A stretch of DNA of 64,000 bases, from positions 45,029 through 109,028 of IMG/VR virus record IMGVR_UViG_3300021963_007714. One strand, 5' to 3'. Within the stretch, counting starts at the first letter, position 1. The number at the start of each line of letters is the position of its first letter. Below, one piece after another: positions 1-39,456 of the stretch. The notes below the pieces were generated by a model. It was given only the letters and a program-made list of their open reading frames with translations. It was not told where the DNA came from and ran no database searches. The stretch comes from a virus. The translations under genes were made by a program, and so were the position numbers.

Positions 1-3000
1 AACTCACTTAGATATAGTGACTAATTTGAATGAAAACAATGTGATTAGGTTAAGCAACGGAACTAACGAATGGCAAGCTATTCTTACTCCTACAAATGTG
101 TCAACGACTGCAATCACTTTTACTTACGTTAATTTTCCAGTGATTAGTGAACCTCAGGTATCGTTCCAAAGAACCAGTAGTATTGCTACAGCAACTTATA
201 CAATGTCAAGAAGTGGCATCTATGTGGAATCTTTGTCCAAACAGACTGTACAGGTTAAAGCAGTAGAGCGTCGTCCAGAATATGCTGTTACTCGTCAAGG
301 CATAAAATTAATTGGAGAAATAAGTTATCCAGTTAGAACTCTAAGCACTGTAACATCTACCGCCACAATAAGTTATCCTGGACCTGGCATTGAAATCATA
401 GCTAGAAACAATTTTGATGTCTATAACATTGTATCAGAATATACGTTTGATAGTAATATAATAAGGTCTACATCTGTATTAGACACAGTTCAATATAATA
501 CTGTTAATCTTTATACCTTCGACAGAGATATATGGATTAGATCGGTCATACGAGAAAACATTACATTATTTTATACATTAAACGGACCAAATCCTAGCAA
601 CATAATCAAACTATACAAGACTAATACAGGTTATGAAGCAACACCTACTGTACTAGCATTTACTAATTACGAAGATGGGAAAAAATCAGTTACCATAGCC
701 TATGAACCTAACTTCCCATCAATAAGCAATATGTTTATTCAGTTTGGGTTCAACAGTATTTCTAGCACACCAATTTACTTAGATAATAATAGAATACCGT
801 TGGTTACTGGTCCTAGATTCTTAACCAAGAACTATAGGATTCTAAGTTTTGTTCCTGAAGTTAAAGAAGTATATAACCAAAAACAAACACTGACTACTGT
901 AACAACTACTGCTACACAGGTTTTTCCAAATTATGGAATACATACAAGTCATATACCTGCTACCTACACCAGTGACTATGTAACTTACTATACATATGAT
1001 AATGATCTGTTCCCACTGACTACAATTAGTCAACCTGGTAATATTACTCTATTCTTTACACCAACTGATTATATTAACAATACCAATCAAATAAGATTAG
1101 GTAATAAAGAATATACCTATCCTAGTGTAATAAATTTAACCAGTGCTACTAATACCAGTGTTAGCTTTAACATTGTGGGATCATTCCCTATTATATCAGA
1201 CCCCACAATATTTTTTGCCGAAAACTCGTATATCGACACGGCTATCTATACAGTCTCATCTAGACCTATCACCTATGATATTATTAAGCCACAAGGTATA
1301 AAATTACAGGATCCATCCAGACCGATTATCACTAAATCAACACTAACAACATTTGTAACTCCTGTAACACAGAGATCCAGCATTCCAATAACAGGAATAA
1401 TTCAGTCTCGAAATAATTTTATTCCTAGTATATATGTACGTGACAATGAAATCTTAAGTTTTACAACTAGCACAGCTAATATCAGTGACTTTGTATCGGT
1501 GTATACTTTTGATAGAGATATAATAACGGTAAGCAGCTTCAATGCTATAACGCTACAATTTACCTATCCAGGATTTAGACAAATTACCGATAAAATCGCA
1601 GTGACTAATGTTAACAGCGGATACAGAACAATTCATACTGTATTAACCAGTAGTGAACGCACAGTGACATTTGCTTCAACCAGTAATTTCCCAAGTGTTT
1701 CTGAACTGTATATTGACTTTAATTGGATTAGTTCAACAGCTACAATTTCATACAATGACAGCATCAGCAGTATTGCTCTATATCAGCCTAGTCTAATGAG
1801 CGAAGGGCAAGTTAGACCAAATGTTATCAACGGAGCCAATGTAAGAGAAGCCTACTTTAAGAGCCTGTTACAACCATCAAGAGCTGGTCGCAGATCATTT
1901 GTTTATACTACAGAGATCACACCTATAACATATAATCCAAGAATCGAATCTCTACGTACTGTGAATCAACTTAGAGCCGATAATAGTTATGCCACTAGAC
2001 AATTAACAGGGCTGTCAACTTCTACAAATATTACCTATCCAAACGCCTCTGTTCCAGTAACTGCTAGAAGTGGTTTGTTTAATTATAATATTGTGAGAGA
2101 TTACATCTTTGACAATAATATTTTACCTAGAGAGTCTAGAACAATCAGTGCCATAACATTGTTCTTTGATAAGAACACTCAATTAGTTACTAACTTGGTA
2201 AAAATACAAAGTCCAAGTTTAGGTTATAGTTTTGAAATTACAGCTCTAAGCACAAGTCAAAATAGCATTACAATACCAGCTATTCCTTTGCCAGATATAT
2301 TAGATCTAGTTGTTTATTTTGGAGTTAGTGTGAGCACTAATACACCGATTTACCTAGATTATAATAGGGTACCTAATGTAGGTAATCCTAGAGCATTGAC
2401 CAATAAAAATCAAATACTGAGCCCTGTAGTTTCTAATATAGCGGATATCTCAAACCAGTTTAAAAATTTAAACACTGTCACTACAACAAGTACATTGGTA
2501 TTTCCTAACATAGGTATTCCTATCACTAACCAGGCAGCACAGTATACCAGTGATGTAGTCTCTTACTATATCTATGATAATGATCTATTACCTATTACGC
2601 AGTTAGCATCTACTTCAACAGTTACTCTGTTCTTTAACACCACCACCTACATTAATACTGACAATAAGATTAAGATTGTTAATCCAAACTGGGAATCATC
2701 GGTATACAACCTAACATCTGCCACAAGTTCGTATATAACTTTTGAAGCTGCGAATTTTGGTATTGTAAGTGAGGGAAGAATATTATTTGCCCAGACTTCT
2801 ACAATAGACACTGCTGTATACTCTGAGATTAAGATAGCTACTCCTGTGGCTAAACTTTGGACCGGCATTGTTGTTAAGGATCCTAGCACTCCTAGAATTA
2901 CTGTAAGACAAACCAGTCAAACTGTGTTTACACCAATAAGGATAAGTGGTGCTATTCCTGTTACCGGAATAAGATCTAGATCAAATAATTTCGTCAATAC

Positions 3001-6000
3001 CTATATCTATGATACTGAATTCTTAACGTTTACAACATCAAATAATATCACCATAACCTTCGATGCTGTCAGTGCTGCTCAAGTCGGAAACAGTGTAATT
3101 ATACATAATGGTCTAGGTTATGTCTCATCGTTCAGTCTCACATCTGCTACCACAAGATTAGCCACTTTTGTTAATCCAGGTAATTTCCCAGAAATCACCG
3201 GAATGTATTTTTATTACTATACCACACAATCTTCTGCTGTGACAATAGGCAATTACGATATAGTTAATAACATTACAACAACCACAAGTCAATTAAGTTA
3301 CTCAAATCAAAGTCCATTCTTTTATCATAGACTTGGTGTAAAGGGAATACCATTCCAGCGTAATCAACTGGCTACCCAAAATACTCCTGTGGCAAATTAT
3401 GTCAAGCAGGGGCTAAAGGTTGTTGCGGACAGTTCATATCCTGCTAGATCATTGATTTCAGTTACAACTTCTTCGGACATAGTTTACATTGGTAATCCAA
3501 TTTATATCACAGCTAGAAGCACAGAATATACTAATAATGTAGTGAGCCAATATATATTCGAAACAGATAGATTTATAGGTAATAGAATTGTTACTGCTAC
3601 TATTACACTCAGCTTCTACCCGACTGTTTATATAAATCCATTGAACAAGATTAGGCTGGTAAATCCTAATAACGGGTATAGCCAAGATATCAACATCAGT
3701 AGTTCTACAAATAGAACGATTACCTTTACTCCGCCTTTGGGTGATTTTCCTGCGATCAGTGATTTATACTTCTTATTTGGACAGACATCAATTTCTTCCA
3801 CACCGATATATACTGACAACAACAAGGTTACATTAATAGCAGCAATGGCCGCTGTAAGACCAAAATCTGTTAGAGCATTAATGACTTTACCTGAAGTTGT
3901 TGATATTGATAGAGTTTTTCAAACACTGACAACAGTTACTTCGACTAGTTCTTTGGTATTCCCAGGCAGTGGCACGCCGATATTAAATCAATATCCCACA
4001 AATACAACCACAGCAGTGACATGGTACTATAATGATGAGGATATCTTATATGTAACTCAAAATACCAGCAGCACTATACGTTTGGCTTTCGAGTCTTCGA
4101 CTTACATTAATCCTGTCAATAAGATTAAGATCGCACATGATGGATATGAATATCAAAGCATTATTTCTTTGACTAGCGCCACTGATACCTACATTGAATT
4201 CGCTGACCCAGGTAATTTCCCAGTAGTAATTAATTCTAGAATTTACTTTGCTCAAAGCACCACACAAGATATTGCTGTGTATGGACAGGGACGAAGTCCT
4301 GTGCGTATTGAAAAATATAGAGATATTAGTATTCTAAAAGAAATTAGATCGACTATAACTTTTAGAACTACAAGTACAGTTTATCAAACGCCTACAGGTG
4401 CAGTATATCCATTAGCCCTAACTGGTCAGACTGATCTAGTTAATGATAATGTGGTCAATTGGTACATCTATGATTACGATACTATAACATTTACTCCAAT
4501 CACTACAAGCACCATTACCTATAGCTTTGCTACAGGTACTAATTTAATACCGTTAATAAAAAATTCTACTATCTACATTTTTAACGAAAATACAAAAATT
4601 GGGCAAACTGCGGCAATCGTTGGATTTACTACCAGTACCTTAACTGTAACAAGACCTGGATTACTACCTGAAATAAGCGGTACTACTATATATCTAAACT
4701 TTACAAGTACTACAGCAGTCAGCACATATTCAGATGATGTACAGAAGATTGCAGGTATTGAAACAAGTGACAGCTATAAGACTATTTTTGAACCGAGAAA
4801 TCAAAAGGAAGCTCTATATTGGTCCCTGTTAGCACCTGGAAAGTATGGTCAAACTTTTCCAGCACAGGGTAAGTCATTAACCGAATTAATCGATAGAAAT
4901 AAAACTGCGGCATTTTTTAACAAGCTGGTATATAGACCTATAGAAGTTAAAATAACAGACATTAATAATAGTCTGTCTAGTCCAATTACTGTAACGTCAA
5001 CTGCCCTTACTTTCTTAAATCCGGGCTATGAAATTGTTGCGCAACTTCCAACGAGCCAATCGATGGACATAGTAAATTGGTACATAAACGAAAATACTTT
5101 ATTGCCTATAACAGCCATTACTACCACAAGTTATCAATTAAACTTCTATGGCAACGTTTATCAAAATCCTCTAAACAAAGTTAGGATTGTAAAAGGAAAT
5201 TATACAAGTGCTGTATTGACTGTGACCAATTCTATACCAAATCAAATTACAGTTAATGCACCTCTAGGACTTCCACCAGTTTCTGGAGGGTTCATCTACT
5301 TCGCAGACAACATCAGTATTGACACTGCTAGCTACACTGATGTAAAACGTGTGCCTGTCACCGGTAACTTACTTACCCAATCAAGTATCGTAACTAATTT
5401 AGCACCTATAACACCTCAGCAACATTTATTTTGGAGCCTATTAAGTCCTAGTAGTTATGGTAGAAGTGAAATCATAATTGGCAAGCAGACTGCTCCTATT
5501 GTTGGCGCTAGAGATATTAATCCTACTGTACAATCTGCTGTATATGGTACAAGCACGGTTATCTATATCACTAATCCAGTATCAGTTAATGGCAGATCAA
5601 ATGAATTTACCAATAATGTTGTGAACGATTATATCTATGATAATGATATCAGTATCTTCGTTCCGATAACTACCAGCACAGTGACATTATTCTACGATAA
5701 TGATCAGGCCATAACTAGTAATTACATTAGGTTGGTGAAAAATTTCACAGGATATACACAAGATTTTAATGCTATAACAGTCACTAATTCACAAACTACC
5801 TTCGTAACAACAAGTAGTTTGCCTGCTATAAGTGAAATGCAAATTTACTTTGGCTATCCAACAATTACCGATGTTATTACTTACAATGATACCGGAAGAG
5901 TGGAGAATATAGCCGCTATTTCTAGTATACCAAAACTTCAGCTCATTACATTGGGTATAAAAGGTTATAACGGTATTACACTAAATCCGTTAGATAAGGT

Positions 6001-8644
6001 GTTAAGAGAAAGTGATCCTTTCTATAAAATTAAAACTTTAACCTCTGTTTCATCTACTTCCACTATTGTATATCCTAATCAAGGTTATGAACCTATCGCT
6101 GTAACAGATTCTATCAGTGATAATTTTGTAACTGTATATACCTACGATCAAGAAGTATTGTTACAGACCTATACCACAAGTTCGTTTATTACCTATGACT
6201 TTTATGCCACAGGATACTATATAAATCCAAATAACACTGTAAGAATAGTCAATAGCAATAATGGATTTGACAGAATTTACAGTATTGTATCTGCTACTAA
6301 TTATTCTATCACAGTTTCTAATACCGGTGATCTTCCAGATGTTTCAGGAACAAGATTGTTCTTTGGCATTAATACAACTATTGATACAGATAATTATTCA
6401 TATAGTGTACAGAACTTCGATAATCTAATTGGTAATTTAACTCAAGCGTCACAAAGACTTGGAGAGGCTGTTTCTGGAATAAAATTATCTAGCTTTAGTT
6501 TACAAAATTATGATAACCCGGGATTCATATTAGATCCTTATTATGGAATTGTATCAGACTCAACCTATCAAAATAATTCTTTAGAATATATTACCTATGA
6601 TAAAGATGTTTTTGTTACAGGGATATTAAGTCGTGGAGTAACAACTACACTCTATATCAATAATCCATATAATAAGATCTATGATCCAAAATTATTGTTT
6701 TATCCAACAAACTATGCCAAGTTAACCTTAGGTACCTTTACTAGTGTGGTTTACCTGTTGGCAACTGATTATTATACAGTGACATTTAATACTGTAGCAG
6801 GTATGCCAGTAGAAGTTAATGGTATGACAATTGTAAATGTCAGCTATGCTTACTATCCACAAAGTGAAGCTAATAAGATTGTATTGACCAATGGTATTTT
6901 ATTCCAGCCTACTACTCCTAAGCAGGCACTAGCCAGCAGTTTGTACAATCCATTAAGGGGTATTGATTATAACATTGATCGGGTTCTTCATCAACCTACT
7001 ACAATACTGAAATACGATCCTAAACTCAGTACTTTCTATAGTAGTAGAATACCTGGAGATTTCAGTCATGTATTGCTAGATCAAACATCAAATACTAGGG
7101 AAATATATGACATTCCTACCTGGTATGAATATGATCGTGACCTACTAACATATTCTACAGGTTCTGTATCTACTAAGAAGCTAAGTTTCAATACTATTGT
7201 AGGTGTACCATTTCCTGCTGGTAGATCTATAAGAATTCGTAATGACAGCATTAATCTAAATTACATTACTACAGTTACAGAAGCTGCAGTTGGATATGTT
7301 ATTATAAATCAACCTACTGTGACCTTCCCAACAGCTGGTACTTTTGTAGAATTGGTTGAATCTGTGCTTTATCCACAGAGTATGGTTGTAACCACTGTGT
7401 CTCCCCAATCCGCCAAAGAAAATCTGTATTACTTTGACAGAAGTCCAGGTTTAAGGGCTACTAAAGGACCACCAGTTGCTAGTCTACAGACTTTATTAGA
7501 TAGCGGCTCTGGAATAAGAAAAGACAGTACCATCATAAAGGGTGACGTTTTACGTTTTGATGTAGGAAAAATCCTACAACCTATCAAAATCATCGCAGTA
7601 GATAATAGAGTTTCGGTGGCAAGTACTAAGATTAAATTGACTGCACGTAGTGTTCAAGATGATCGTAGAATAGTTGGCAAGCTAAGAAGTGCTATCACAG
7701 TAAGAGCTGATAGTTCAACCATTGTCTATGGTAAGTTGGCCGAAAGACGTATAGTACCTAACCTAGTGTCTGTGAGAGATAACCTGTCAGTGTCTAAACT
7801 TACCAACTATGAAAACATAGGTGAAGTTACTGGACCATATATCACTATAACTTCACATACAGATCTAGGAAGAACAGTTACAGGATATAGTCAAGAGTGG
7901 GCAGATAACTTTACCACAGTATATGCCTTTGACCAAGACATAATTACTCAAACCTATGTTAGAACTGACACTGTTCAAATATTTTATAATGCTGGTAATG
8001 ATATAACACCCCTATTCCCTACAGGGTCAGAGTTTTACCTACAAGACCTTAACACCGGATATCAACGACAATTTATAGCTTTAGAAGGCAATATTGGAAA
8101 CGTAGTGATTAATAATCCAGGGTTCTTACCTGGTATCAGCAACATGCAGATAGTTTCAACTGCCTCTAGTTATCCAATAACATTGACATTTGGTCAACAG
8201 GTACTACAGCCTTATTATGTGGGTAGTTATATCAGTGTAATTAATAGCATTGGCCAAAGTGTGAAAGTGGTTTTAACCGCAGCGACTAGAAGTAGTGTAA
8301 CCTATGTTAAAAATTATTCTTACAGAGACTTTAGGTTTGCGCCAGGCAGTGTTAGTCTAGCCAGCTTGAGCGTACCAGTATACCCAAGTGCTACAGTTAG
8401 ACCGACAAGCAAACCTACAAATATCAGAGAAAACTTATTCTTTGTAAGCCTGGCACCAAATTACGAGCACAGAGCAGAATTAGAATTTACCTACAGCAAT
8501 TTGGTTGATGATGTCAGCGTGCTGTCCTATGATAGTGCTACCGGAATCATTAATAAATATATGGTTGGTGATACTGCTAAGGGCCAAACTGGAGTTACAG
8601 ATCCTAGCGCCAGAAGAGTAGAACCCATACAGTTCTGGAGCTAA
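1..8644 (+). CDS. Giant Thr/Ser-rich repetitive virion structural protein (tail fibre/baseplate-like), 5'-truncated by the window
   Basis: The frame is open from base 2 through the GTG at 17, giving >=2875 aa. About 16 degenerate 150-190 aa repeats marked by Y-x-(Y/F)-D-x-D and (F/L)P-x-IS motifs. Beta-rich composition, lying among structural genes. Confidence 0.6.
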   Translation, partial: THLDIVTNLNENNVIRLSNGTNEWQAILTPTNVSTTAITFTYVNFPVISEPQVSFQRTSSIATATYTMSRSGIYVESLSKQTVQVKAVERRPEYAVTRQGIKLIGEISYPVRTLSTVTSTATISYPGPGIEIIARNNFDVYNIVSEYTFDSNIIRSTSVLDTVQYNTVNLYTFDRDIWIRSVIRENITLFYTLNGPNPSNIIKLYKTNTGYEATPTVLAFTNYEDGKKSVTIAYEPNFPSISNMFIQFGFNSISSTPIYLDNNRIPLVTGPRFLTKNYRILSFVPEVKEVYNQKQTLTTVTTTATQVFPNYGIHTSHIPATYTSDYVTYYTYDNDLFPLTTISQPGNITLFFTPTDYINNTNQIRLGNKEYTYPSVINLTSATNTSVSFNIVGSFPIISDPTIFFAENSYIDTAIYTVSSRPITYDIIKPQGIKLQDPSRPIITKSTLTTFVTPVTQRSSIPITGIIQSRNNFIPSIYVRDNEILSFTTSTANISDFVSVYTFDRDIITVSSFNAITLQFTYPGFRQITDKIAVTNVNSGYRTIHTVLTSSERTVTFASTSNFPSVSELYIDFNWISSTATISYNDSISSIALYQPSLMSEGQVRPNVINGANVREAYFKSLLQPSRAGRRSFVYTTEITPITYNPRIESLRTVNQLRADNSYATRQLTGLSTSTNITYPNASVPVTARSGLFNYNIVRDYIFDNNILPRESRTISAITLFFDKNTQLVTNLVKIQSPSLGYSFEITALSTSQNSITIPAIPLPDILDLVVYFGVSVSTNTPIYLDYNRVPNVGNPRALTNKNQILSPVVSNIADISNQFKNLNTVTTTSTLVFPNIGIPITNQAAQYTSDVVSYYIYDNDLLPITQLASTSTVTLFFNTTTYINTDNKIKIVNPNWESSVYNLTSATSSYITFEAANFGIVSEGRILFAQTSTIDTAVYSEIKIATPVAKLWTGIVVKDPSTPRITVRQTSQTVFTPIRISGAIPVTGIRSRSNNFVNTYIYDTEFLTFTTSNNITITFDAVSAAQVGNSVIIHNGLGYVSSFSLTSATTRLATFVNPGNFPEITGMYFYYYTTQSSAVTIGNYDIVNNITTTTSQLSYSNQSPFFYHRLGVKGIPFQRNQLATQNTPVANYVKQGLKVVADSSYPARSLISVTTSSDIVYIGNPIYITARSTEYTNNVVSQYIFETDRFIGNRIVTATITLSFYPTVYINPLNKIRLVNPNNGYSQDINISSSTNRTITFTPPLGDFPAISDLYFLFGQTSISSTPIYTDNNKVTLIAAMAAVRPKSVRALMTLPEVVDIDRVFQTLTTVTSTSSLVFPGSGTPILNQYPTNTTTAVTWYYNDEDILYVTQNTSSTIRLAFESSTYINPVNKIKIAHDGYEYQSIISLTSATDTYIEFADPGNFPVVINSRIYFAQSTTQDIAVYGQGRSPVRIEKYRDISILKEIRSTITFRTTSTVYQTPTGAVYPLALTGQTDLVNDNVVNWYIYDYDTITFTPITTSTITYSFATGTNLIPLIKNSTIYIFNENTKIGQTAAIVGFTTSTLTVTRPGLLPEISGTTIYLNFTSTTAVSTYSDDVQKIAGIETSDSYKTIFEPRNQKEALYWSLLAPGKYGQTFPAQGKSLTELIDRNKTAAFFNKLVYRPIEVKITDINNSLSSPITVTSTALTFLNPGYEIVAQLPTSQSMDIVNWYINENTLLPITAITTTSYQLNFYGNVYQNPLNKVRIVKGNYTSAVLTVTNSIPNQITVNAPLGLPPVSGGFIYFADNISIDTASYTDVKRVPVTGNLLTQSSIVTNLAPITPQQHLFWSLLSPSSYGRSEIIIGKQTAPIVGARDINPTVQSAVYGTSTVIYITNPVSVNGRSNEFTNNVVNDYIYDNDISIFVPITTSTVTLFYDNDQAITSNYIRLVKNFTGYTQDFNAITVTNSQTTFVTTSSLPAISEMQIYFGYPTITDVITYNDTGRVENIAAISSIPKLQLITLGIKGYNGITLNPLDKVLRESDPFYKIKTLTSVSSTSTIVYPNQGYEPIAVTDSISDNFVTVYTYDQEVLLQTYTTSSFITYDFYATGYYINPNNTVRIVNSNNGFDRIYSIVSATNYSITVSNTGDLPDVSGTRLFFGINTTIDTDNYSYSVQNFDNLIGNLTQASQRLGEAVSGIKLSSFSLQNYDNPGFILDPYYGIVSDSTYQNNSLEYITYDKDVFVTGILSRGVTTTLYINNPYNKIYDPKLLFYPTNYAKLTLGTFTSVVYLLATDYYTVTFNTVAGMPVEVNGMTIVNVSYAYYPQSEANKIVLTNGILFQPTTPKQALASSLYNPLRGIDYNIDRVLHQPTTILKYDPKLSTFYSSRIPGDFSHVLLDQTSNTREIYDIPTWYEYDRDLLTYSTGSVSTKKLSFNTIVGVPFPAGRSIRIRNDSINLNYITTVTEAAVGYVIINQPTVTFPTAGTFVELVESVLYPQSMVVTTVSPQSAKENLYYFDRSPGLRATKGPPVASLQTLLDSGSGIRKDSTIIKGDVLRFDVGKILQPIKIIAVDNRVSVASTKIKLTARSVQDDRRIVGKLRSAITVRADSSTIVYGKLAERRIVPNLVSVRDNLSVSKLTNYENIGEVTGPYITITSHTDLGRTVTGYSQEWADNFTTVYAFDQDIITQTYVRTDTVQIFYNAGNDITPLFPTGSEFYLQDLNTGYQRQFIALEGNIGNVVINNPGFLPGISNMQIVSTASSYPITLTFGQQVLQPYYVGSYISVINSIGQSVKVVLTAATRSSVTYVKNYSYRDFRFAPGSVSLASLSVPVYPSATVRPTSKPTNIRENLFFVSLAPNYEHRAELEFTYSNLVDDVSVLSYDSATGIINKYMVGDTAKGQTGVTDPSARRVEPIQFWS

Positions 8645-8947: not shown

Positions 8948-11900
8948 ATGGCCAAGCATATAATTCAAGAAAGTTATACATTTACACCAGGATCAAATAC
9001 AATTGTATTACAAAATAGATTCCTGCGTCGTGAACAACTGGTTTTGATTACTAATGTTACAACTAACACGGTAATCTATAACTTCGCAGATTCGGCACTA
9101 AGAGCAACAACATTTACAACTAGTATTGTTGCCAACGTCGAAACAACTACAATCGTTCTCAACTATAACACAAGCTCAATGAGCAGCACAGACAAGCTGG
9201 CCATTTTGGTAGAAGAAACCAATGAAACATTTATGCCAGCTGAAGTGTACATTGATCCTGTTCAGAAATTACGTGTTTCAACACCACAGAGTTTGATTGA
9301 TACTGACTTCGAATATGGAGTGCAGCCAACCAAGTGGGAAACATTGAATCTAATGAATAATAGACCAAGTGGTTTTTATGACCCTACAGCACCTGTTACT
9401 ATCACTTCTGTTTCAGGTAACGGTACAAGAGTAGTTACAGTGCTACTAGCAAACACTACTGGTATTATCGCGGGTAACCCAATTTATATTCAAGATACAA
9501 TTGATCCTAATGCTAATGGTTACTTTATCATTGCGTCAGTTAGTACTAACGTTAACTTTACATATAACGCAGGAGCAAACGTAACCAACGGTATTATTTT
9601 CGATCAAACTAAAACATATGTATTCAATGCGATTCCATATACTGGCGCAGGGGTGGCTGTAACAACCACAGGTGGTGGTTCCTTTGTCAGATCAGCATTG
9701 AACGAAGTTACTGTAACAACTAAAGATAATCATGGATTGTCTGTAGGTGATGCGATCTTTGTCTGTAACACAACAGCTTCTAGTAATCCACCAAATGGTG
9801 CTTGGTTTGTTCGTCGTACACCTACAACTAACACATTTATCTATGACACTATTGCAGATCCAACAGGTACTATTACAGCCCAAGCCTCTGGTAGTGGTTT
9901 GACTGTTAATACCACAGTAGATGCTTCAGGTCGTATTATTGCTGTGGCAGTGAACGCTGCTGGTACACTATATGCAGTGGGTGACATTGCTACAATTTCC
10001 GGTGGTGGCGGTAATGCTCGTGTTAAAGTTACAGCTATTATTCCATCAGCTACTGGTTCTTTAGTTGGTGCGGTGAACGGTGTACAGGTTAACCAACCTG
10101 GTACAGGTTATTCAGGTGCTTCAGGTGTAGCTACTACACTAAACTTCAGTGGTGGTACACTCTATGTTCGTCCATGGGGTAGTGCTATTCATAGACCATT
10201 TGACGGTGGTGTGTATTTTACTGCTGGTGTTCCTTATCACGGCAATCAGTTAATTCGTCAAACACGTCGTTATTTCCGTTATCAATCTGGTAAAGGCATT
10301 CAGTTCTCAACTGGATCTAATATGACTTCACCGTTTATTGTTGATAACGTAACATCGTCAGGTTCTACTGTTACTGTAACAACCAAGTTTCCACATAATT
10401 TATTTACAGGTGCTAACATTCGTGTTAGTGGCTGTAATGAATCAGCATATAACGGAACATTCAATGTTACATTTTTAACTGCTACAACATTTAGCTACAC
10501 TGCCTTATCAACACCAAGTGCTAGTCCTGCCACAGGTAGTCCGACTGTACAGCCTAATACATGGTTTGGATCATTCATTCGTCTAGGTATGTTTGATAAC
10601 CAGAATGGATTTTTCTTTGAATACGATGGTCAAGCACTATTTGCCTGCCGCCGTTCAAGTACAAATCAACTTTCTGGTTATGTAAGTGCTTTAGGTACAG
10701 GTGAACAGTCAGTAACTGGTGTTAACAGTAAATGGTCAAGTCAGTTGAGTCCTGGTGATTTTATTGTAGTACGTGGTATGAGCTATACTGTAGTCAGTAT
10801 TGAAAGTGATACAGCGATGACAATTTACCCAGATTACCGTGGTACTGCTATTGTTCCTCCGACGCAGTTAATTATCAGTAGAACTGATACTCTACGTATG
10901 CAACAAAACACATGGAATATTGATAAGATGGATGGAACTGGAGAATCTGGTTTCAATATTGATATCAATAAGATGCAGATGTGGTATATTGACTATACAT
11001 GGTACGGTGCTGGTGCTATTCGTTGGGGATTTAGAACACAACGCGGTACAGTAGCATACGCACATAGGCTAGCACACGGTAATAACATGACAGAGGCTTA
11101 CATGCGTACTGGTAACTTACCAGCTCGTTATGAAGTTTCAACAATTGCGCCCGTAACAAAATTAGCAGCCACGTTAAGTAACTCAGAAACAGGCACAATC
11201 ACAGTAGCAAGCACAACAGGTTTCCCAAATAGTGGAACATTGATCATCAACGCCAGTGGTAATACAGGCGCTGCTATCGAATATATTAGTTATACTGGAA
11301 AAACAGCTACAACATTTACTACATTGACCAGAGCATTAACAAACCTTACAGGTCCTCAAGGCCTAGCAAGTGGAGGTGGTGCTACTACAGCACAGACATT
11401 TACATTTAGTGCTACAGCACCTCACTCAGTGAGTTATTTTAGTCCACAATGTAGTAATACAATCAGTCACTGGGGTAGTTCTGTGATGATGGATGGTAGG
11501 TTTGATGATGATAAATCTATCGTGTTTATCGCAGGTATGACCACAGCCTACTCAAACATTGGCGCAAGTGTACTCGTTCCATTATTGAGCATACGTATTA
11601 GCCCAAGTGTAGACAGTGGTTTAACTGGTGTTATTGGTGCTAGAGAACTTGTCAATAGGATGCAATTGGTTTTACGTTCAGCTGGTATCCAAACTTCTGG
11701 TACAAACTTTCTAATTACAGGACGTTTAAATGCTAGGATTACTGGTGGTACTGCTACTAGTTTTACTAGCGCTGGTGGTTCAAGCCTAGCTCAAGTGAAT
11801 TACCACGCAAGTAACAATTCCGTGTCAGGTGGTGAGATTTGCTTTGGTGCTTTCACAGCACCTGGTGTTAACGTACTAGACCTGTCTGTTGTACGTGACC

Positions 11901-12067
11901 TAGGTAATAGTATATTAGGTGGTGGTGCTGCTCTAAGTCATCCAGCTAGTGATTTAAACAAGTACCCAGATGGTCCGGACATTCTAACACTATGTGCTCA
12001 AAATACTGGTGGTGTTACAACTAACAGTATTATTGCTCGTATTGGTTGGACAGAAGCTCAAGCTTAA
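8948..12067 (+). CDS. Virion structural protein (tail/baseplate-associated, beta-rich)
   Basis: 1039 aa, G/T/S-rich. Repeated 'VTVTT..HGL..GD.I.V' and 'VTVTTKFPHNL' modules typical of phage tail proteins. GAGGA SD and a downstream terminator. Confidence 0.65.
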   Translation: MAKHIIQESYTFTPGSNTIVLQNRFLRREQLVLITNVTTNTVIYNFADSALRATTFTTSIVANVETTTIVLNYNTSSMSSTDKLAILVEETNETFMPAEVYIDPVQKLRVSTPQSLIDTDFEYGVQPTKWETLNLMNNRPSGFYDPTAPVTITSVSGNGTRVVTVLLANTTGIIAGNPIYIQDTIDPNANGYFIIASVSTNVNFTYNAGANVTNGIIFDQTKTYVFNAIPYTGAGVAVTTTGGGSFVRSALNEVTVTTKDNHGLSVGDAIFVCNTTASSNPPNGAWFVRRTPTTNTFIYDTIADPTGTITAQASGSGLTVNTTVDASGRIIAVAVNAAGTLYAVGDIATISGGGGNARVKVTAIIPSATGSLVGAVNGVQVNQPGTGYSGASGVATTLNFSGGTLYVRPWGSAIHRPFDGGVYFTAGVPYHGNQLIRQTRRYFRYQSGKGIQFSTGSNMTSPFIVDNVTSSGSTVTVTTKFPHNLFTGANIRVSGCNESAYNGTFNVTFLTATTFSYTALSTPSASPATGSPTVQPNTWFGSFIRLGMFDNQNGFFFEYDGQALFACRRSSTNQLSGYVSALGTGEQSVTGVNSKWSSQLSPGDFIVVRGMSYTVVSIESDTAMTIYPDYRGTAIVPPTQLIISRTDTLRMQQNTWNIDKMDGTGESGFNIDINKMQMWYIDYTWYGAGAIRWGFRTQRGTVAYAHRLAHGNNMTEAYMRTGNLPARYEVSTIAPVTKLAATLSNSETGTITVASTTGFPNSGTLIINASGNTGAAIEYISYTGKTATTFTTLTRALTNLTGPQGLASGGGATTAQTFTFSATAPHSVSYFSPQCSNTISHWGSSVMMDGRFDDDKSIVFIAGMTTAYSNIGASVLVPLLSIRISPSVDSGLTGVIGARELVNRMQLVLRSAGIQTSGTNFLITGRLNARITGGTATSFTSAGGSSLAQVNYHASNNSVSGGEICFGAFTAPGVNVLDLSVVRDLGNSILGGGAALSHPASDLNKYPDGPDILTLCAQNTGGVTTNSIIARIGWTEAQA

Positions 12068-12086
12068 AAGCATAAGCATAGAAAAG

Positions 12087-12114
12087 AAGGCTGCTATACG
12101 CAGCCTTTCTTTTT
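12087..12114 (+). terminator. Rho-independent terminator
   Basis: AAGGCTGC-tatac-GCAGCCTT stem followed by a T-tract. Confidence 0.85.
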
Positions 12115-12129
12115 AATAAATATAAGATC

Positions 12130-15100
12130 ATGCGATTAGAAGACATCAAAGAAGGCAGCAGAGTTGATCATCAACATCAATTCAAAGAGATGTTTGCTAG
12201 ATTCCTACCTATTGCTATAGAAATTCTCAATCTAAAATCTCTGCCTGAATTTCACTTTGAAGCATTTTTAGATCATCCTCAACAACCTACCTTCGGTATG
12301 TATGTCAACGGTGAAAATAAATTGTATGTAGGCCTAAGTGGTCGTCATCCTAATGACATCTTTAGAACCATAGCACATGAATTAACTCACTACAAACAAG
12401 ACACTGAACACATGCTGGATGATCGCAGCGGCGAGACTGGTAGTCCTATTGAAAACCAAGCCAATGCCATGGCTGGTATCATCATGCGTCATTTTAACAA
12501 AACCTATCCTGACTATCTTCGCAGTAAACCTGTTATGGAAGATATTGATGTCACTGATGAAAGTCTCAAAGGTTTGGCTGCTGCTGGACTAATAGGTCTA
12601 GGCATGTTAGGTGGTCCCAAAGATGTAGCCAGTGGTAACCTACCACAAGACCTACAAAAGGCACAGCAGCAACACCGTGTTCAAATGGCTAAGAAACCTA
12701 TGGCCAAACCCGCAGCGACAAAACCAGCAGCAGCTAAACCTTTACCAGCTAAAGCGACCCCTTTGTTAAAAGTAGCCAAGGCTAATGGTATTAAAGGCGT
12801 AGAACTAGCACAGTTTTTGGCACAAATGGAACATGAAAGTCTTGACTTTAAGAAGATGAAGGAGTTAGGTAAATCGACCTACTTCAACAAATATGATCCA
12901 AAACATAACCCTAAATTAGCTAATAAATTAGGAAACAAATTCAAGGGTGACGGACTACAATTTAGAGGTCGTGGCTTTATACAATTAACAGGCAGAGAAA
13001 ACTATACACAGGCCAGTCGTGACATATTTGGTGATGATAGGTTAGTTAAGAAACCAGACCTAGCAGCACAGCCAGATATAGCAGCACGTATAGCAGTATG
13101 GTATTGGACTGATCGTGTGAAACCTTTGGTCAAAGACTTTTCAGATACTACTCGTGTTACAAAGATTATCAATGGTGGACTAAACGGACTTGAAGATAGA
13201 GAAAATAATTTCAGAGACTATATGGCCAGTCTTGGCCTAATGGAAAAATGGTCAATGAAGTATAAAAAGAGTATCAATTGCGCCAATCCCAAAGGGTTCA
13301 GTCAGCGTGCTCACTGTCAAGGTCGTAAGAAAACAGAAGATGTAGAACAAGATCCAGGAGATCCTATACCTTTTCCAGCAGGCACTACTTCGGTAGATGT
13401 TAGTGATCCCTATGATTGGTATAAACTAGGCATGGTAATAAGTGATCTAGATGATGCCAATCCTCAAGCATTTGGACGAGGTGGTCCCAGCACTGTGATT
13501 GCCTTTGGCAGTGAAGATGAAGAACATAGACTGCTGCCATACCTTAAAAGACTTGGACTTAAACTAAAAGACATTGACAAACCCAGTGACACTAGAAAAA
13601 TTGTGCCCGCCAAGGCTGTGTTAGACAAATTGGAAGAAGGTTTTAAACTAGACGAACTTAATATTAATCAAACGCTGGCCTTTATCAAACAGGCACATGG
13701 TGATCAACTCTATGGCAAACTGCCCTATTGGACCCATCCTCGTGCTGTAGCCATGACAGGCAAAAAGATCTTTGGCAACAAGTTTAATAGTGATGCTGTA
13801 AAGGTTGCCTTCTTACATGATGTGGTAGAAGATACTAATATAAGTATAGATGAATTAGGCAAGTTAGACTTTTCACCACAGGTCATTGAAGCAGTGAGCC
13901 TGCTGACAAAGAACAAGACATTGACCTATCGTCAAAATATAGAAAACATTATCAACAGCGGCAACCCTTTGGCCATGATGGTCAAATATGCTGACAACTA
14001 TGAAAACTATTCAGGTGATAAGAGCGACTGGGATTCTGCTCGAGCAGCCAGCAGTCAAAAGAAATACTTGATGAGCCTTAATATGTTAGGGAGTAAGTTA
14101 GGTGTAAAACATCACGAGCAAAATTTAAAAGAACTAGGAACTACACAATATAAAGTAACAGAACCTAGAGACATGGTCAACGTTGATTTTAGATCCAAGC
14201 AAATTACCTACAAAGTTTTTAAATTCAAAGTAGATAAGCAGGTATTTCTAATTGTGCTCACTGTAAAAGACCAGGCAATGCCGGGCTCTAAGAAAAAGGT
14301 TCCAACCCTAAATGTAGCGTTTGGTAGGCAAGATAAAAACGGTTGGGACGTTGACGATATTGACACTAACCTAACTGGTGATAATCAAAATCAATTTCAA
14401 ATCTATTCCACTGTGATCAAGGCCATACAAAAGTTTATTACTCAATTGAATCCTAATGTAGCACAAATTATAATAAAAGGAGACAATGAGAGACAACAGG
14501 TAATGTATGATAGATTTTTTAATTCACGCTACTTGGAGAAATTTTTTCCAGGTTGGCAATTAAACCCAACAACTAAAACTCTAATAAAAAATCAAAGTCA
14601 AAATTTAAAGGAACTTTTGGACCCTAAATTAGCCATAGATCTTGATTGGGCAGAGGGTAGTGATTATATTGCTGCCAGAGGTTATGTCACAGTGACTGAT
14701 CAATATGGCAACAAAGAAGATGTAGAATTAGAAGTAGAATTCGGGGAATTTCCACAAAGAAATCGTAAAGAATACGAAGTTCAATTTAAAGTAGGCGATA
14801 GTTATGATATAACAGGTGGTGGCAACGCTAATGTGATTTTTGCCACGGTTATACAGGCCTGTAAAGATTTCGTGGAAATGTATAAACCAGATCGATTATT
14901 CTTCACAGCAAAAGAGCAGTCTAGAGCAAGAATGTATGATACACTGACTAAACGTGTGGCCAAGCAGGTAGGATGGCACGTTATACCATTTGATGAAATA
15001 CAAAAGGATCCATTGTATAGAAATAACAGTGATAATGGGTTCGTGTTTGTCATAGGGAAAGGTGCTGCACCTGAAAAATGGTCCAGTGCTCAACAGCCAC

Positions 15101-15519
15101 AACACGGTAGTTTTATGCCTATTTTCTATGTATATAATGTAGATAAAGATACACCTACTGTGGCAGTTAAGGTTAGGGCCCCAAATAGGGAGACTGCTGT
15201 TCAGCACGCTATGAAAATAGAACCCAGTTTTAAAGATTTGGATTTAATGCAGATACACGCCTTGAACAGCCTACCCAAGCGTGAAGTCACTGATGTAATA
15301 GATGGTGGCACAGCAGAAGATCCTAGAAAGGTAGGAGAAAACTTTGCTGATGGTAAGAATCCACAGGATAAAGGTGATAGTGGTAGACACGGCATAAAAA
15401 AAGGTATTACAATAGCACAACTAAAAAAGATTAGATCCAGTGACTCAGCCAGTCCAAGAAAAAAGCAGTTGGCACACTGGCAGATCAATATGAGACAGGG
15501 GCGTAGTAAAAAAGGATAA
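12130..15519 (+). CDS. Multidomain polyprotein: HExxH metallopeptidase-like + GH19 lysozyme/chitinase + HD (RelA/SpoT-type hydrolase) + two related alpha/beta modules + basic C-terminal peptide
   Basis: AHELTH; GH19 motifs AQFLAQMEHES, RGRGFIQLTGRENY and INGGLNGLEDR; HD motifs PYWTHP, AFLHDVVEDT and VKYADNYEN. Modules are bounded by hydrophobic-x-Glu sites. Confidence 0.8.
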   Translation: MRLEDIKEGSRVDHQHQFKEMFARFLPIAIEILNLKSLPEFHFEAFLDHPQQPTFGMYVNGENKLYVGLSGRHPNDIFRTIAHELTHYKQDTEHMLDDRSGETGSPIENQANAMAGIIMRHFNKTYPDYLRSKPVMEDIDVTDESLKGLAAAGLIGLGMLGGPKDVASGNLPQDLQKAQQQHRVQMAKKPMAKPAATKPAAAKPLPAKATPLLKVAKANGIKGVELAQFLAQMEHESLDFKKMKELGKSTYFNKYDPKHNPKLANKLGNKFKGDGLQFRGRGFIQLTGRENYTQASRDIFGDDRLVKKPDLAAQPDIAARIAVWYWTDRVKPLVKDFSDTTRVTKIINGGLNGLEDRENNFRDYMASLGLMEKWSMKYKKSINCANPKGFSQRAHCQGRKKTEDVEQDPGDPIPFPAGTTSVDVSDPYDWYKLGMVISDLDDANPQAFGRGGPSTVIAFGSEDEEHRLLPYLKRLGLKLKDIDKPSDTRKIVPAKAVLDKLEEGFKLDELNINQTLAFIKQAHGDQLYGKLPYWTHPRAVAMTGKKIFGNKFNSDAVKVAFLHDVVEDTNISIDELGKLDFSPQVIEAVSLLTKNKTLTYRQNIENIINSGNPLAMMVKYADNYENYSGDKSDWDSARAASSQKKYLMSLNMLGSKLGVKHHEQNLKELGTTQYKVTEPRDMVNVDFRSKQITYKVFKFKVDKQVFLIVLTVKDQAMPGSKKKVPTLNVAFGRQDKNGWDVDDIDTNLTGDNQNQFQIYSTVIKAIQKFITQLNPNVAQIIIKGDNERQQVMYDRFFNSRYLEKFFPGWQLNPTTKTLIKNQSQNLKELLDPKLAIDLDWAEGSDYIAARGYVTVTDQYGNKEDVELEVEFGEFPQRNRKEYEVQFKVGDSYDITGGGNANVIFATVIQACKDFVEMYKPDRLFFTAKEQSRARMYDTLTKRVAKQVGWHVIPFDEIQKDPLYRNNSDNGFVFVIGKGAAPEKWSSAQQPQHGSFMPIFYVYNVDKDTPTVAVKVRAPNRETAVQHAMKIEPSFKDLDLMQIHALNSLPKREVTDVIDGGTAEDPRKVGENFADGKNPQDKGDSGRHGIKKGITIAQLKKIRSSDSASPRKKQLAHWQINMRQGRSKKG

Positions 15520-15521
15520 CG

Positions 15522-15734
15522 ATGTTTCTAAATACCATAGCAGTAATTTTTATTACGTATGCCATTTTAATTTTATTTTCAACCAAAGACGGAATTAGCA
15601 AGCAGGTAAGACAAGCCCTGGGCCCAGAAGATTTGGAAAGACTTCAAACTGAGCTCGACTATCGCGAATATTGGGCTGTTTTATTATTCCTATTTGGTTT
15701 ATTAATCTTACTACCTAAATTAATAATGTGGTAA
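15522..15734 (+). CDS. Small two-TM membrane protein
   Basis: 70 aa with two hydrophobic segments and an AAGGA SD. Confidence 0.55.
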   Translation: MFLNTIAVIFITYAILILFSTKDGISKQVRQALGPEDLERLQTELDYREYWAVLLFLFGLLILLPKLIMW

Positions 15735-18350: not shown

Positions 18351-18587
18351 GTGTCTGGACCAACAGATATTGAAAAAGAAAATCTTGAGGCACATGTAGA
18401 ACTTTGTGCTGTCAGATATAAAGAAATAGAAAATAGATTAAGTGCGATTGAGGGCAGTGTTTCTAGCCTCAAAAAAACTGTAGAAGAAAGCCACATGAAT
18501 ACTATTAAAGTTTTAATAGGAACAGCTGGCACAGTAGTTGCCAGTGTGTTAGGTGTTTTAGTTGTCGTTCTACAGAAAATGTCATGA
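18351..18587 (+). CDS. Coiled-coil protein with C-terminal TM (XhlA/holin-like architecture)
   Basis: LEAHVELCAVRYKEIENRL coiled coil followed by a hydrophobic tail; GTG start with GGAG SD. Confidence 0.55.
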   Translation: MSGPTDIEKENLEAHVELCAVRYKEIENRLSAIEGSVSSLKKTVEESHMNTIKVLIGTAGTVVASVLGVLVVVLQKMS

Positions 18588-18970
18588 AAATACAAGAGCT
18601 ATTAGGCGAACAAACCATAGGAACTTCAGGCTCTACTACAGGACCGGTAGGAACTGTATCACAGGTTAGTCAAAAACCCAGTGATAAACCTATGACCGCT
18701 ACTAGCACACAACAAGACTCAACTACAAAAAATCTAGACAATCTATTAAAACAAAATCAAATCAATGTGAAAAATACAGATGATTTTTTAAGAGCTTTTG
18801 ACGCCATACAACAAAAGCAACCTATCAATAATCTTCCACCTGAGCAACAAAAGGCCATAGGTGACTATACCAAAGCTACTATTAATCGTCCTGGTTTACC
18901 TACACAAATGGCTTCTATAATGAAGTCTATAAAAACTGCTAATACAAACAACACAGCTAAACCTGCTTGA
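18584..18970 (+). CDS. Hypothetical protein with putative capsid-targeting leader
   Basis: N-terminus MKIQELLGE; low-complexity Q/T/N body. Confidence 0.55.
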   Translation: MKIQELLGEQTIGTSGSTTGPVGTVSQVSQKPSDKPMTATSTQQDSTTKNLDNLLKQNQINVKNTDDFLRAFDAIQQKQPINNLPPEQQKAIGDYTKATINRPGLPTQMASIMKSIKTANTNNTAKPA

Positions 18971-19467: not shown

Positions 19468-21042
19468 ATGAAAACCGAAGATTTCAACAAAAAAATTGAT
19501 AGTAAAAAGCTGAGAGAATCAATTTCCAAAAAATTTGGCGTTGAGCTTCAGTTTGATCATTATAATAGAGAACAATTAGAAGATTATAGAAATAAACTTC
19601 GTACAAGAATTTTTCAAGCAGAAGGATCTTCAGGTATAAATGATTTACTCAATAACGAATCATATCAGAAAGATAAAGCAATTTTACAATTGCTCAACAC
19701 AAGGATTAAAGAGATGCTAGGCGAAGACCTTAAAAAATTAAGAGATAAAATTGATGCTTTGGAAGAAGCAAAAAAAGGTGTTCGCGCACCTAAATATACA
19801 AAGAAAGCCAAAGGTGCTAACGACGGCAATCTTGCTAATAATTATCCTCCATTTGATAAAGTTACCAGAGGCGATGTAATCGCTGGTGCTACTGGTAAAG
19901 ATCAAAAGGGCGGCAATAAGAAAGATGTAAAAGCTGACGAAGGACGCCGTATTTCAGGCAAAGGCTATGACAATCCTGAGCATGATAGTAAACCGCCAGA
20001 GGGCAAAGTTCCCTTTACCAGTTTCCATCAAGGCAAGCAAGGTGATCAAGCAGCAAGACTACATGCCACACAGGTCAAAGGTAAGTTGGTCAAGGGCAAG
20101 GCACAGAGCGCCAAGCAGGATGAGCCAGGTGTAAAAGAAGAAAAGTTTGATCCGTTAAAGCACGTTAAAAATCCTACACCGGGTGAAAAGAAAGCCGCTA
20201 AAGATGTTAAACGTAGTAGCTATGCTGATCGTGCCGCAATGTTAAGATCAGCAGAAAAAGATGGACGCTTAAAAGAAGCCGATGACAAGTGTAATCACAC
20301 ACCAAAAGGTAAGAAATGTCCAGTCCATGGCCTAAAAGAGTGCGGCACAATGGAAGGCAAGGACGAAGGTAAGCCAGGCAAGAACTTTGCTAAGATCGCC
20401 AAGAAAGCAGGCGAGAAGTATGGCAGCAAGGCAGCAGGCGAGCGTGTAGCAGGCGCTGTCCGTCAAAAATTAAAGAAGGCTGGTAAGTTAGAAGAATCTA
20501 ATCTAATCTTCAAGCGTAATGTTCGCACAGTGAACGAAAGCTTAGCCTATCTACTCAGTGAAAATGAAGAAGAAAAAGCAAAGAGCATCACAGCAGCTGG
20601 TGATATTGTAAATGATTTTACTAGTTGGATGCAGCGTGTAGGCCAATATCAAACCAAATCAATGATTGAACTTGCTGATAAGATTCGCAGTGATTTTGGT
20701 CCAGCAGAAGCTGAAGCATTTAAGCAGGCTGTAGGCCCAGCTCTAAGTGCAACATTAGAACTACTAACTCAACAGCGTGAAATAATCAGTAACGCAGTAG
20801 CAGCACTGGCCGGAGAACAAATGCCTACAGAACCAATGGGCATGGAACCAGGAGCTGATATGTCTGAACCAGGAATGGACGCTGCTGAACCAGACATGAT
20901 GAATGAACCACCTAGCGATGAGTTTGCCGCAGCAGACGCAGCAGCAGGCGGCGCTGAAGCAGCTGGTCGTGAAATGCGTGAAAGCAAGTTTGCTCGCAAA
21001 CTGGCAGAAAGTCATAGCATTATCAGCAAACTAGCAAGATGA
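19468..21042 (+). CDS. Prohead core/scaffold-like protein with an internal array of basic peptides
   Basis: Coiled-coil termini, a Lys-rich centre, an acidic Pro/Met-rich tail and many (L/V/M)-x-E sites; TATAAATA at 19438. Confidence 0.55.
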   Translation: MKTEDFNKKIDSKKLRESISKKFGVELQFDHYNREQLEDYRNKLRTRIFQAEGSSGINDLLNNESYQKDKAILQLLNTRIKEMLGEDLKKLRDKIDALEEAKKGVRAPKYTKKAKGANDGNLANNYPPFDKVTRGDVIAGATGKDQKGGNKKDVKADEGRRISGKGYDNPEHDSKPPEGKVPFTSFHQGKQGDQAARLHATQVKGKLVKGKAQSAKQDEPGVKEEKFDPLKHVKNPTPGEKKAAKDVKRSSYADRAAMLRSAEKDGRLKEADDKCNHTPKGKKCPVHGLKECGTMEGKDEGKPGKNFAKIAKKAGEKYGSKAAGERVAGAVRQKLKKAGKLEESNLIFKRNVRTVNESLAYLLSENEEEKAKSITAAGDIVNDFTSWMQRVGQYQTKSMIELADKIRSDFGPAEAEAFKQAVGPALSATLELLTQQREIISNAVAALAGEQMPTEPMGMEPGADMSEPGMDAAEPDMMNEPPSDEFAAADAAAGGAEAAGREMRESKFARKLAESHSIISKLAR

Positions 21043-39153: not shown

Positions 39154-39456
39154 ATGTCAATAACTGATGTTATACTAGAAACCACTACCTCTGATAAAAT
39201 CAAAGTCCCAAAAAAATATAAAGTTATATTTTGTAATGACAATGTAACACCTGTTGAATTTGTGGTAGCAGTGTTAATGAGTGTGTTCAAACATGAACAA
39301 AATGCTGCCATGGAAATCACACTAAAGGTCCATAATGAAGGCAGTGCTGTAGCGGGTATCTATAGCTACGAAATAGCAGAACAAAAAAGTATTGATGTAA
39401 TGGCATTAGCTCGATCAAATGGATATCCCCTACAGGTCAAAGTAGAGGCAGAATGA
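39154..39456 (+). CDS. clpS: ClpS N-degron adaptor
   Basis: YKVIFCNDNVTPVEFVV, VHNEGSAV, EIAEQK and YPL. Confidence 0.93.
   Translation: MSITDVILETTTSDKIKVPKKYKVIFCNDNVTPVEFVVAVLMSVFKHEQNAAMEITLKVHNEGSAVAGIYSYEIAEQKSIDVMALARSNGYPLQVKVEAE

Follow-up and report, generated by a model that had tools for sequence, protein, structure and literature searches.

The gene described here encodes a 1129-residue protein that is probably a late-expressed, head-targeted cargo polyprotein of a T4-related phage of about 360 kb, cut into pieces by the prohead protease. It occupies positions 12130 to 15519 of a 64,000-nucleotide stretch of viral DNA (the window, below), which forms the final 64 kb of a 109-kb contig, G000, in IMG/VR (record IMGVR_UViG_3300021963_007714; CheckV completeness 30%). 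Comparison of the predicted protein with its relatives reveals a modular anatomy, shuffling of modules at their joints, a hydrophobic-x-Glu motif at those joints, resemblance of its leader to those of T4 and, in the genomes of relatives, a protease of the appropriate family. Every comparative test run at the level of sequence supports the reading of a packaged and cut protein.

The mechanism would run as follows. A leader at the N-terminus, of the kind that targets T4 proteins to the capsid, would take the chain into the prohead core, where the gp21-family prohead protease would cut exposed hydrophobic-x-Glu joints between modules. Cutting would release a zincin peptidase (15 kDa), a GH19 muramidase (26 kDa) with Lys and a Gly/Ala-rich membrane anchor at its new N-terminus, a piece made up of the Cys peptide and IPFP, an alarmone-type HD hydrolase (18 kDa), two DUF6934 proteins and a very basic tail protein (6.6 kDa). 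These pieces would remain with the DNA in the head and enter the next host on infection. The joint-bounded cassettes would be swapped among phages within a near-constant chassis made up of the leader and the tail, the latter usually C-terminal.

Module joints and hydrophobic-x-Glu sites

The initial annotation, made from the window alone, had proposed a single long open reading frame (ORF) of unrelated enzymes joined by Glu sites. The frame is indeed open throughout, and all of the modules that were named in it are borne out by Pfam, PHROG and PDB searches, structure modelling and homologue comparison. The arrangement is as follows.

12130..15519, + strand: whole putative cargo polyprotein, 1129 residues in one open frame
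12130..12153, + strand: leader MRLEDIKE, resembling a capsid-targeting sequence (residues 1-8), with a second candidate site, FKE, at residues 18-20
12154..12540, + strand: HExxH zincin-type metallopeptidase module (residues 9-137, ending VME)
12541..13245, + strand: GH19 muramidase module (residues 138-372, ending LME)
12571..12615, + strand: Gly/Ala-rich hydrophobic segment before the GH19 domain (residues 148-162)
13246..13347, + strand: Cys-containing basic peptide module (residues 373-406, xWSxKYKxSINCxxPKGFSQxAHCxGRKK)
13348..13638, + strand: 'IPFP' module (residues 407-503, ending LEE, with no N-terminal Glu site)
13639..13656, + strand: six-residue spacer GFKLDE between the candidate sites LEE-503 and LDE-509
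13657..14133, + strand: HD hydrolase module of the RelA/SpoT-Mesh1-small alarmone hydrolase (SAH) family (residues 510-668, ending NLKE)
14134..14613, + strand: DUF6934-type module a (residues 669-828, starting LGTTQY and ending NLKE)
14614..15339, + strand: DUF6934-type module b and a poorly modelled stretch (residues 829-1070, ending VGE)
15340..15516, + strand: conserved basic tail module, NFADGKNPQDKGDS...QLAHWQINMRQGR (residues 1071-1129, isoelectric point 11.2)

All the sites listed by that annotation are present in the translated ORF: IKE 6-8, VME 135-137, TDE 142-144, LME 370-372, LEE 501-503, LDE 507-509, LKE 666-668, LKE 826-828 and VGE 1068-1070. The further claim that each boundary carries a site holds exactly at seven of the eight boundaries that can be defined by homology and fails at the one between the Cys peptide and the IPFP module, around residue 406.

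None of the 158 homologues is full-length or collinear with the query. Instead they share one or a few modules with it, at 55-97% identity and in varying combinations, the partner domains being NT5C (5'-nucleotidase), DUF2608, dCMP deaminase, amidoligase, GNAT, NTase and ART-PolyVal. Breakpoints of the high-scoring segment pairs cluster at residues 138, 367-373, 404-413, 503-510, 662-669, 828 and 1063-1070, so that, module by module, shuffling breakpoints coincide with the Glu sites as had been anticipated. Some 30.7% of BLAST breakpoints lie within three residues of a site, compared with 10.0 ± 0.9% at random positions. As this statistic is noisy, logos of the module starts were used in its place, anchored on conserved module starts and built from distinct upstream contexts only. 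At the start of the tail, P1 is Glu in 91/91 contexts and P3 is one of ILVMF in 87/91, while P2 varies. Hydrophobic-x-E precedes the Cys peptide in all 20 contexts and [ILV]xE precedes the HD module in all 11; at the start of the LGTTQY module a P1 Glu and a hydrophobic P3 are found in 5/5. By background alone, ILVMF would be expected at a frequency of 0.236 and Glu at 0.06.

With about 1.5 occurrences per 100 residues the motif by itself is common, and the excess over chance is in its position. Across 288 distinct module starts a triplet ends exactly at the start in 39%, against 0.7% per residue within modules, a figure that shows how far the joint is kept in new contexts and is no unbiased discovery, since it is anchored on modules cut at the query's own sites. 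The nearest relative, L005, provides a particularly simple case. It is 93-100% identical to the query in all other modules and is missing the HD cassette alone, through a clean indel of 152 residues between ...LEE-DFRLD and NLQE|LGTTQY. In the query, a 31-nucleotide direct repeat (14105-14135 and 14585-14615) covers both QNLKEL joints.

Leader, tail and prohead protease

N-termini across the family, for example MKILDIISE, MKVIDILTE, MRINEILSE and MKLRELLSE, follow the consensus M[KR]xx[DE][IVF]xxE and resemble the capsid-targeting sequence of T4; in the T4 record the N-termini are MKTYQEFIAE in ipII and ipIII, MLKEQLIAE in gp22 and MELITELFDE in Alt. A 10-residue capsid-targeting sequence is sufficient for packaging, with residues 8 and 10 controlling processing (PMC9026906). 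The smallest family members consist merely of leader, Glu site and tail (MKIREVTE|NFADG), and in some others MKTFAQFRE or MKTFKDFISE leads directly into the tail (e.g. MKTFAQFRE|NFADG). The N-terminus of the query fits the T4 type, about ten residues ending in (L/I)-x-Glu, as a matter of resemblance only, and it is weaker than the family leaders. Other ORFs of G000 and of its relative G001 bear the same type of leader and, among the relatives, the gene overlapping the polyprotein stop codon is usually leader-bearing too.

Searches with the tail module returned 1202 representative clusters at E <= 1e-3 and 258 IMG/VR loci, with one copy per genome. In an alignment of 40 proteins the sole invariant column is E1070, the last residue ahead of the tail. 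Our supposition that the tail is always C-terminal had to be dropped: it is so in around 80% of the best 150 representatives, and in the other 20% or so it lies behind the leader or within the chain. The IPFP module is found in 108 of 150 collected proteins, usually immediately ahead of the tail. We read the tail as a conserved, very basic and possibly DNA-binding internal protein, with which the variable cargo would travel as part of one chain. Among GenBank phages neither tblastn with the tail module nor megablast with the polyprotein gene found anything, and these searches thus revealed no cultured phage with the leader-tail chassis; tblastn with the whole protein was dominated by GH19 and uninformative as to architecture.

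The T4 prohead protease gp21 cuts after the Glu of (L/I)-x-E. Homologues of this enzyme (PF03420, Peptidase_S77; 88-91 bits) are encoded by G001 and G002, two relatives of 364 kb rated complete, and by G003, a record of 270 kb. Gene order in G001 is that of T4, namely portal, protease, scaffold-like protein and major head protein, and alignment of the protease with the T4 record shows conservation of the His (LGEVDHP) and Ser (GVSSRG) motifs. In the capsid protein of G001, YLSE|S stands where T4 gp23 has FLTE|A and gp24 has LLRE|S. With a capsid site at the T4 position and a gp21-family protease, the motif at the polyprotein joints matches the head protease of the lineage. G000 itself can be compared with G001 through 52 ORFs in long synteny, at 30-83% amino acid identity, so that the missing 70% of G000 very probably holds the same head module.

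The enzymatic modules

The HExxH module was modelled by AlphaFold2 (AF2) with a mean predicted local distance difference test (pLDDT) score of 81.6, residues 1-11 and 141-145 being disordered. Foldseek E-values for this model are weak (>=0.03), yet the top matches are all zincin peptidases: SPRTN, abylysin, IrrE, Wss1, selecase and minigluzincins. The motifs HExxH and G.TGS..EN are invariant across 15 homologues. Sequence searches were less informative: phmmer with the module against the PDB gave chance matches only, the Pfam scan of the polyprotein gave no metallopeptidase family at E <= 0.1, and searches of the protein atlas yielded a weak lead to IrrE/M78 and DUF6934, nothing more.

Within the GH19 module a short acidic spacer, TDE 142-144, the hydrophobic segment and a Lys/Pro/Ala-rich linker precede the catalytic domain (217-372). 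The latter matches PF00182 (E 6.6e-8; 33.1 bits against a cut-off of 25.5) and phrog_181 (1.5e-41), its PDB matches are phage endolysins, down to E 1.8e-23, and the catalytic HES...E motif is present, with HES aligned and the second Glu nine residues downstream. In one clade of relatives (L028, L033, L036 and L038) a 211-residue GH19 gene overlaps or directly follows the polyprotein stop, and two GH19 copies adjoin.

Cleavage after TDE-144 had been suggested to expose a Lys followed by an anchor-like segment. In support of a signal- or anchor-like N-terminus made by cleavage, a Glu site stands 3-5 residues ahead of the segment in all homologues having it (xDE|SLK, ΦEE|GWRD), but TDE-144 is not a canonical site; the canonical VME-137 lies seven residues upstream. 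Only after the proposed cut could the segment be N-terminal. In two further proteins, P0099 and P0104, a similar segment ends in an LSGC lipobox, and no GH19 was detected after it.

The likeness of the HD domain to small alarmone hydrolases is upheld by the PDB, where 20 of 20 matches are RelA/SpoT hydrolase, Mesh1, SAH or (p)ppApp hydrolase chains (4e-6 to 7e-3). Its LHDVVEDT motif fits the H...HD..ED signature, and the generic Pfam HD family scores below its cut-off. As to the two modules described as related, a profile link does connect DUF6934-type modules a and b (PF22028 matches residues 861-946 of the latter), but their direct similarity in BLASTP is not significant (E 1.9).

Weighing the explanations

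Several observations weigh against the packaged-and-cut reading or limit it, and packaging, cleavage, ejection and the role of each enzyme in the host are what we infer. No head genes were found on the 109-kb G000 fragment, including its first 45 kb, and a profile scan of this roughly 30% complete contig found no PF03420; the protease is known solely from the relatives, at the level of identity given above. The query contains 18 hydrophobic-x-E triplets, of which eight are sites of the initial annotation and ten lie inside modules, among them the VVE of the HD active-site motif, so that accessibility would have to decide cleavage. The full-length AF2 model, built on a MAFFT alignment of shuffled homologues, is poor (pLDDT 52.8), with low confidence at residues 1-11, 822-844 and 982-1075 and with GH19 and HD not folded, and so is unusable for judging site exposure in the GH19 and HD regions. 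IKE-8 is not kept in L005 and, while an F-x-E at around residues 15-20 is conserved, FKE-20 falls within the first predicted helix. No site marks the boundary between the Cys peptide and the IPFP module, the module-start statistic depends on our own module definitions, and the Glu ahead of NFADG could simply be part of the tail module. Finally, the HExxH module, in-chain or stand-alone, is present in every near-complete relative.

This last distribution would fit a self-processing polyvalent protein, with an embedded or genome-encoded HExxH peptidase acting on the joints, whether ahead of delivery, during it or afterwards. Embedded metallopeptidases have been proposed to release the domains of polyvalent proteins (PMC5512222), and here the zincin signature of the module is intact and its fold is confidently modelled; the module is present in 41 of 129 tail-bearing proteins and may act as a joint cutter in trans. 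In G002 it is a stand-alone gene of 135 residues with its own leader, a copy that proved wrong our supposition that genomes whose polyprotein lacks the module lack it altogether. That leader is of the head type, however, and so the stand-alone copy looks like cargo itself. The other 88 tail-bearing proteins retain the same joints without the module, and the joint motif is both the specificity of T4-type prohead proteases and the capsid maturation site of the lineage. Nor are its nearest structural matches, IrrE, SPRTN/Wss1 and the minigluzincins, known to be Glu-specific peptidases. We consider self-processing decidedly unlikely.

The chain might also work uncut as a large polyvalent protein, in the virion or inside the cell; some polyvalent proteins, such as N4 vRNAP and TraC1, are transferred unprocessed (PMC5512222). 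The triplets would then be a conserved feature that links or caps domains, or would result from the way in which cassettes recombine. The general frequency of hydrophobic-x-E and the 31-nucleotide repeat over the QNLKEL joints would fit this. Against it, P3 and P1 are fixed and P2 is free ahead of at least four unrelated module families, which indicates selection on peptide rather than DNA, and the smallest family members comprise just leader, Glu site and tail. Moreover, an uncut chain with a single membrane segment would place GH19 and HD in the same compartment, unfit for their substrates; either the periplasmic GH19 or the cytoplasmic HD would be misplaced, which argues for separation of the modules. 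An uncut protein thus appears unlikely. A purely intracellular late role, in which the SAR-like GH19 part lyses the host, perhaps with the small membrane protein encoded downstream, is suggested by the similarity of the Gly/Ala-rich segment to signal-arrest-release (SAR) domains, by the common use of GH19 as an endolysin fold and by the position of that ORF, 3 nucleotides past the stop and conserved in the closest relatives. Yet SAR segments are N-terminal and this one is internal (residues 148-162 of 1129), the small ORF is confined to those closest relatives, and the leader, the tail and leader-bearing neighbours in relatives suggest head targeting. Furthermore, relatives with a GH19 polyprotein also have the adjoining 211-residue GH19 gene, which is leaderless and the better candidate for the likely endolysin, making a lysis role for the polyprotein less likely; we regard it as highly improbable.

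The packaged-and-cut explanation can be taken a step further. Termini made by cleavage might serve as cryptic export signals, here Lys with the Gly/Ala-rich anchor and in two relatives a complete signal of the lipobox type, with the head protease doubling as processor of combinatorial cargo chains: an injected muramidase or lipoprotein would be re-routed to the envelope of the new host, the alarmone hydrolase and peptidase would act in its cytoplasm, and any module placed between hydrophobic-x-Glu sites could be inserted into the leader-to-tail chassis. This extension is possible but doubtful.

Relationship to known systems

The closest parallel is with the internal proteins IPI, IPII and IPIII and with Alt of T4. 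They too combine a short leader that ends in hydrophobic-x-Glu with a gp21-family protease in the lineage, and their cargo is basic, late-expressed and hypervariable, while the leader in front of it is conserved. Alt offers a precedent for distal cuts, being processed at ITE-6 and again at LTE-619, towards its other end (PMC5694885). The T4 proteins, however, consist of one functional unit with short propeptides, whereas here there are up to eight unrelated modules with sites at nearly every joint, as well as a conserved basic tail module, and processing is a prediction from sequence. Pfam and PHROG scans and homologue searches revealed no homology to IPI, IPII, IPIII or Alt, and membership of the T4 internal proteins would therefore be functional, not by descent.

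Polyvalent proteins combine many unrelated enzymatic domains in a single polypeptide and are found in phages and conjugative elements (Iyer et al. 2017; PMC5512222). They are characterized by 2-15 unrelated, mostly enzymatic domains, a late, virion or transfer gene context and shuffling; the present protein, with at least eight modules and a virion structural neighbour, conforms to this description. Shared features are domain shuffling and the embedded zincin peptidase and muramidase, and one homologue carries the ART-PolyVal domain PF18760. Release of polyvalent-protein domains has been attributed to embedded peptidases, with no joint motif described (PMC5512222), whereas the joints seen here match a head-maturation protease, leader and tail form a fixed chassis and most members have no peptidase domain.

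In phiKZ, 201phi2-1 and SPN3US the proteases gp175/gp245 process inner-body and ejection proteins at (S/A/G)-x-Glu (PMC9026906, PMC10052503). There, too, a gp21-related protease that recognizes a motif of few determinants cuts after Glu, several times per protein, but the P3 preference is for small rather than aliphatic residues, what is removed or fragmented is the long N-terminal propeptide of a single mature protein (PMC10052503), and multi-enzyme polyproteins are unreported. MuF toxins likewise join a head-associated part to interchangeable effectors, including alarmone-metabolising ones (PMC5512222, PMC12226406). They differ from the present module chain in having a single variable C-terminal toxin and no Glu joints, and neither Pfam nor PHROG finds a MuF (Phage_Mu_F) domain in the polyprotein. 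The combination of a muralytic domain with a weakly hydrophobic, Gly/Ala-rich membrane segment recalls SAR endolysins and ejected muralytic proteins such as T7 gp16, although SAR endolysins do not have the segment internal and the GH19 fold inside a polyprotein.

A search of the literature outside subscription journals found no description of multi-enzyme chains tagged with capsid-targeting sequences and joined by prohead-protease sites. If the proposed explanation is correct, the T4 rule whereby a leader loads the protein and a Glu site frees it would extend from single proteins to whole enzyme chains, and bacteriophages would gain a polyprotein strategy so far linked to RNA viruses. It would also account for the changeable kit of enzymes with which giant phages meet the first minute of infection (cell wall, alarmone/toxSAS counter-defence, nucleotide metabolism), and for evolution of that kit through cassette exchange. 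Injection of a small alarmone hydrolase would give phages a new way of pre-empting stringent-response or toxSAS-type (CapRel-like) defences (for context, PMC7229694, PMC9712102). The family is large, and its grammar may be simple enough for reuse in packaging foreign proteins into T4-type heads.

Genomic context and further observations

The immediate surroundings of the polyprotein gene contain the following features.

8948..12067, + strand: upstream neighbour, a 1039-residue virion structural/fibre-like protein (phrog_5838, 1.7e-259)
12086..12114, + strand: terminator-like hairpin after the upstream gene (9-bp stem, 5-nucleotide loop, T run)
12116..12122, + strand: ATAAATA, a motif like the T4 late promoter, 7 nucleotides ahead of the polyprotein ATG
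15522..15734, + strand: downstream 70-residue ORF with two hydrophobic segments, starting 3 nucleotides past the polyprotein stop codon

The upstream gene product shares 40-44% identity with virion structural proteins of T4-like cyanophages, and gene order at the locus is identical in the close relative G005. Elsewhere contig G000 encodes a T4 gp9/gp10-like baseplate protein, DNA ligase, ribonucleotide reductase and DNA polymerase. ATAAATA shows a marked strand bias in the window, with 17 copies on the + strand and one on the - strand, and 13 copies sit 4-46 nucleotides 5' of ORF starts; this placement is as expected for a putative T4-type late promoter. Positions on the + strand include 12116, 30875, 39142, 40641, 41792, 48910 and 59067, and in at least seven cases the gap between motif and ATG is just 4-7 nucleotides, so that late transcripts would be leaderless, or nearly so, without space for a Shine-Dalgarno sequence. 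Conservation of the 70-residue ORF does not extend beyond L005 and L006, the closest relatives; its product may have a holin-like or membrane role.

Four other ORFs of the window have head-type leaders and are candidate capsid cargo: 18584-18970 (MKIQELLGE), 19468-21042 (MKTEDF; a phrog_14154 virion structural protein), 39154-39456 (MSITDVILE) and 40655-41776 (MRFSEFSKPLEE). In the 364-kb relative G002 an overlapping late operon (L111 436-2809; G002:296935-299308, - strand) encodes a 275-residue protein, the 135-residue HExxH peptidase (MRFQEL..., ending DIFE) and a 381-residue protein starting MRAKEFLFE, and looks like a cluster of leader-bearing cargo enzymes.

The Cys-peptide module is shared with the T4-like cyanophages S-SM2, S-CAM9, S-PRM1 and P-TIM68. 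S-SM2 and S-CAM9 are cultured phages in which it stands behind hydrophobic-x-E. The S-SM2 protein SSM2_108 (L108 2680-3108), encoded between terminase genes, has 142 residues, a T4-like leader (MKTLKQFLKE) and the Cys peptide at its end (FRE|SWSNKYKK). In Synechococcus phage S-CAM9 the peptide begins after AKE (AKE|GWSAKYKK) in gp114 (L107 2758-4857), a basic chain of 700 residues with repeated GYEPEGE motifs.

Directly 5' of the structural-protein gene lies a giant open frame (window 1-8644; G000:37446-53672) of about 5,390 codons, rich in Ser, Thr, Asn and Ile and with no PHROG match, which probably encodes a huge fibre- or adhesin-like virion protein. Outside the window, three adjoining genes with radical-SAM domains (G000:7253-11821) are found within the initial 12 kb of the contig.

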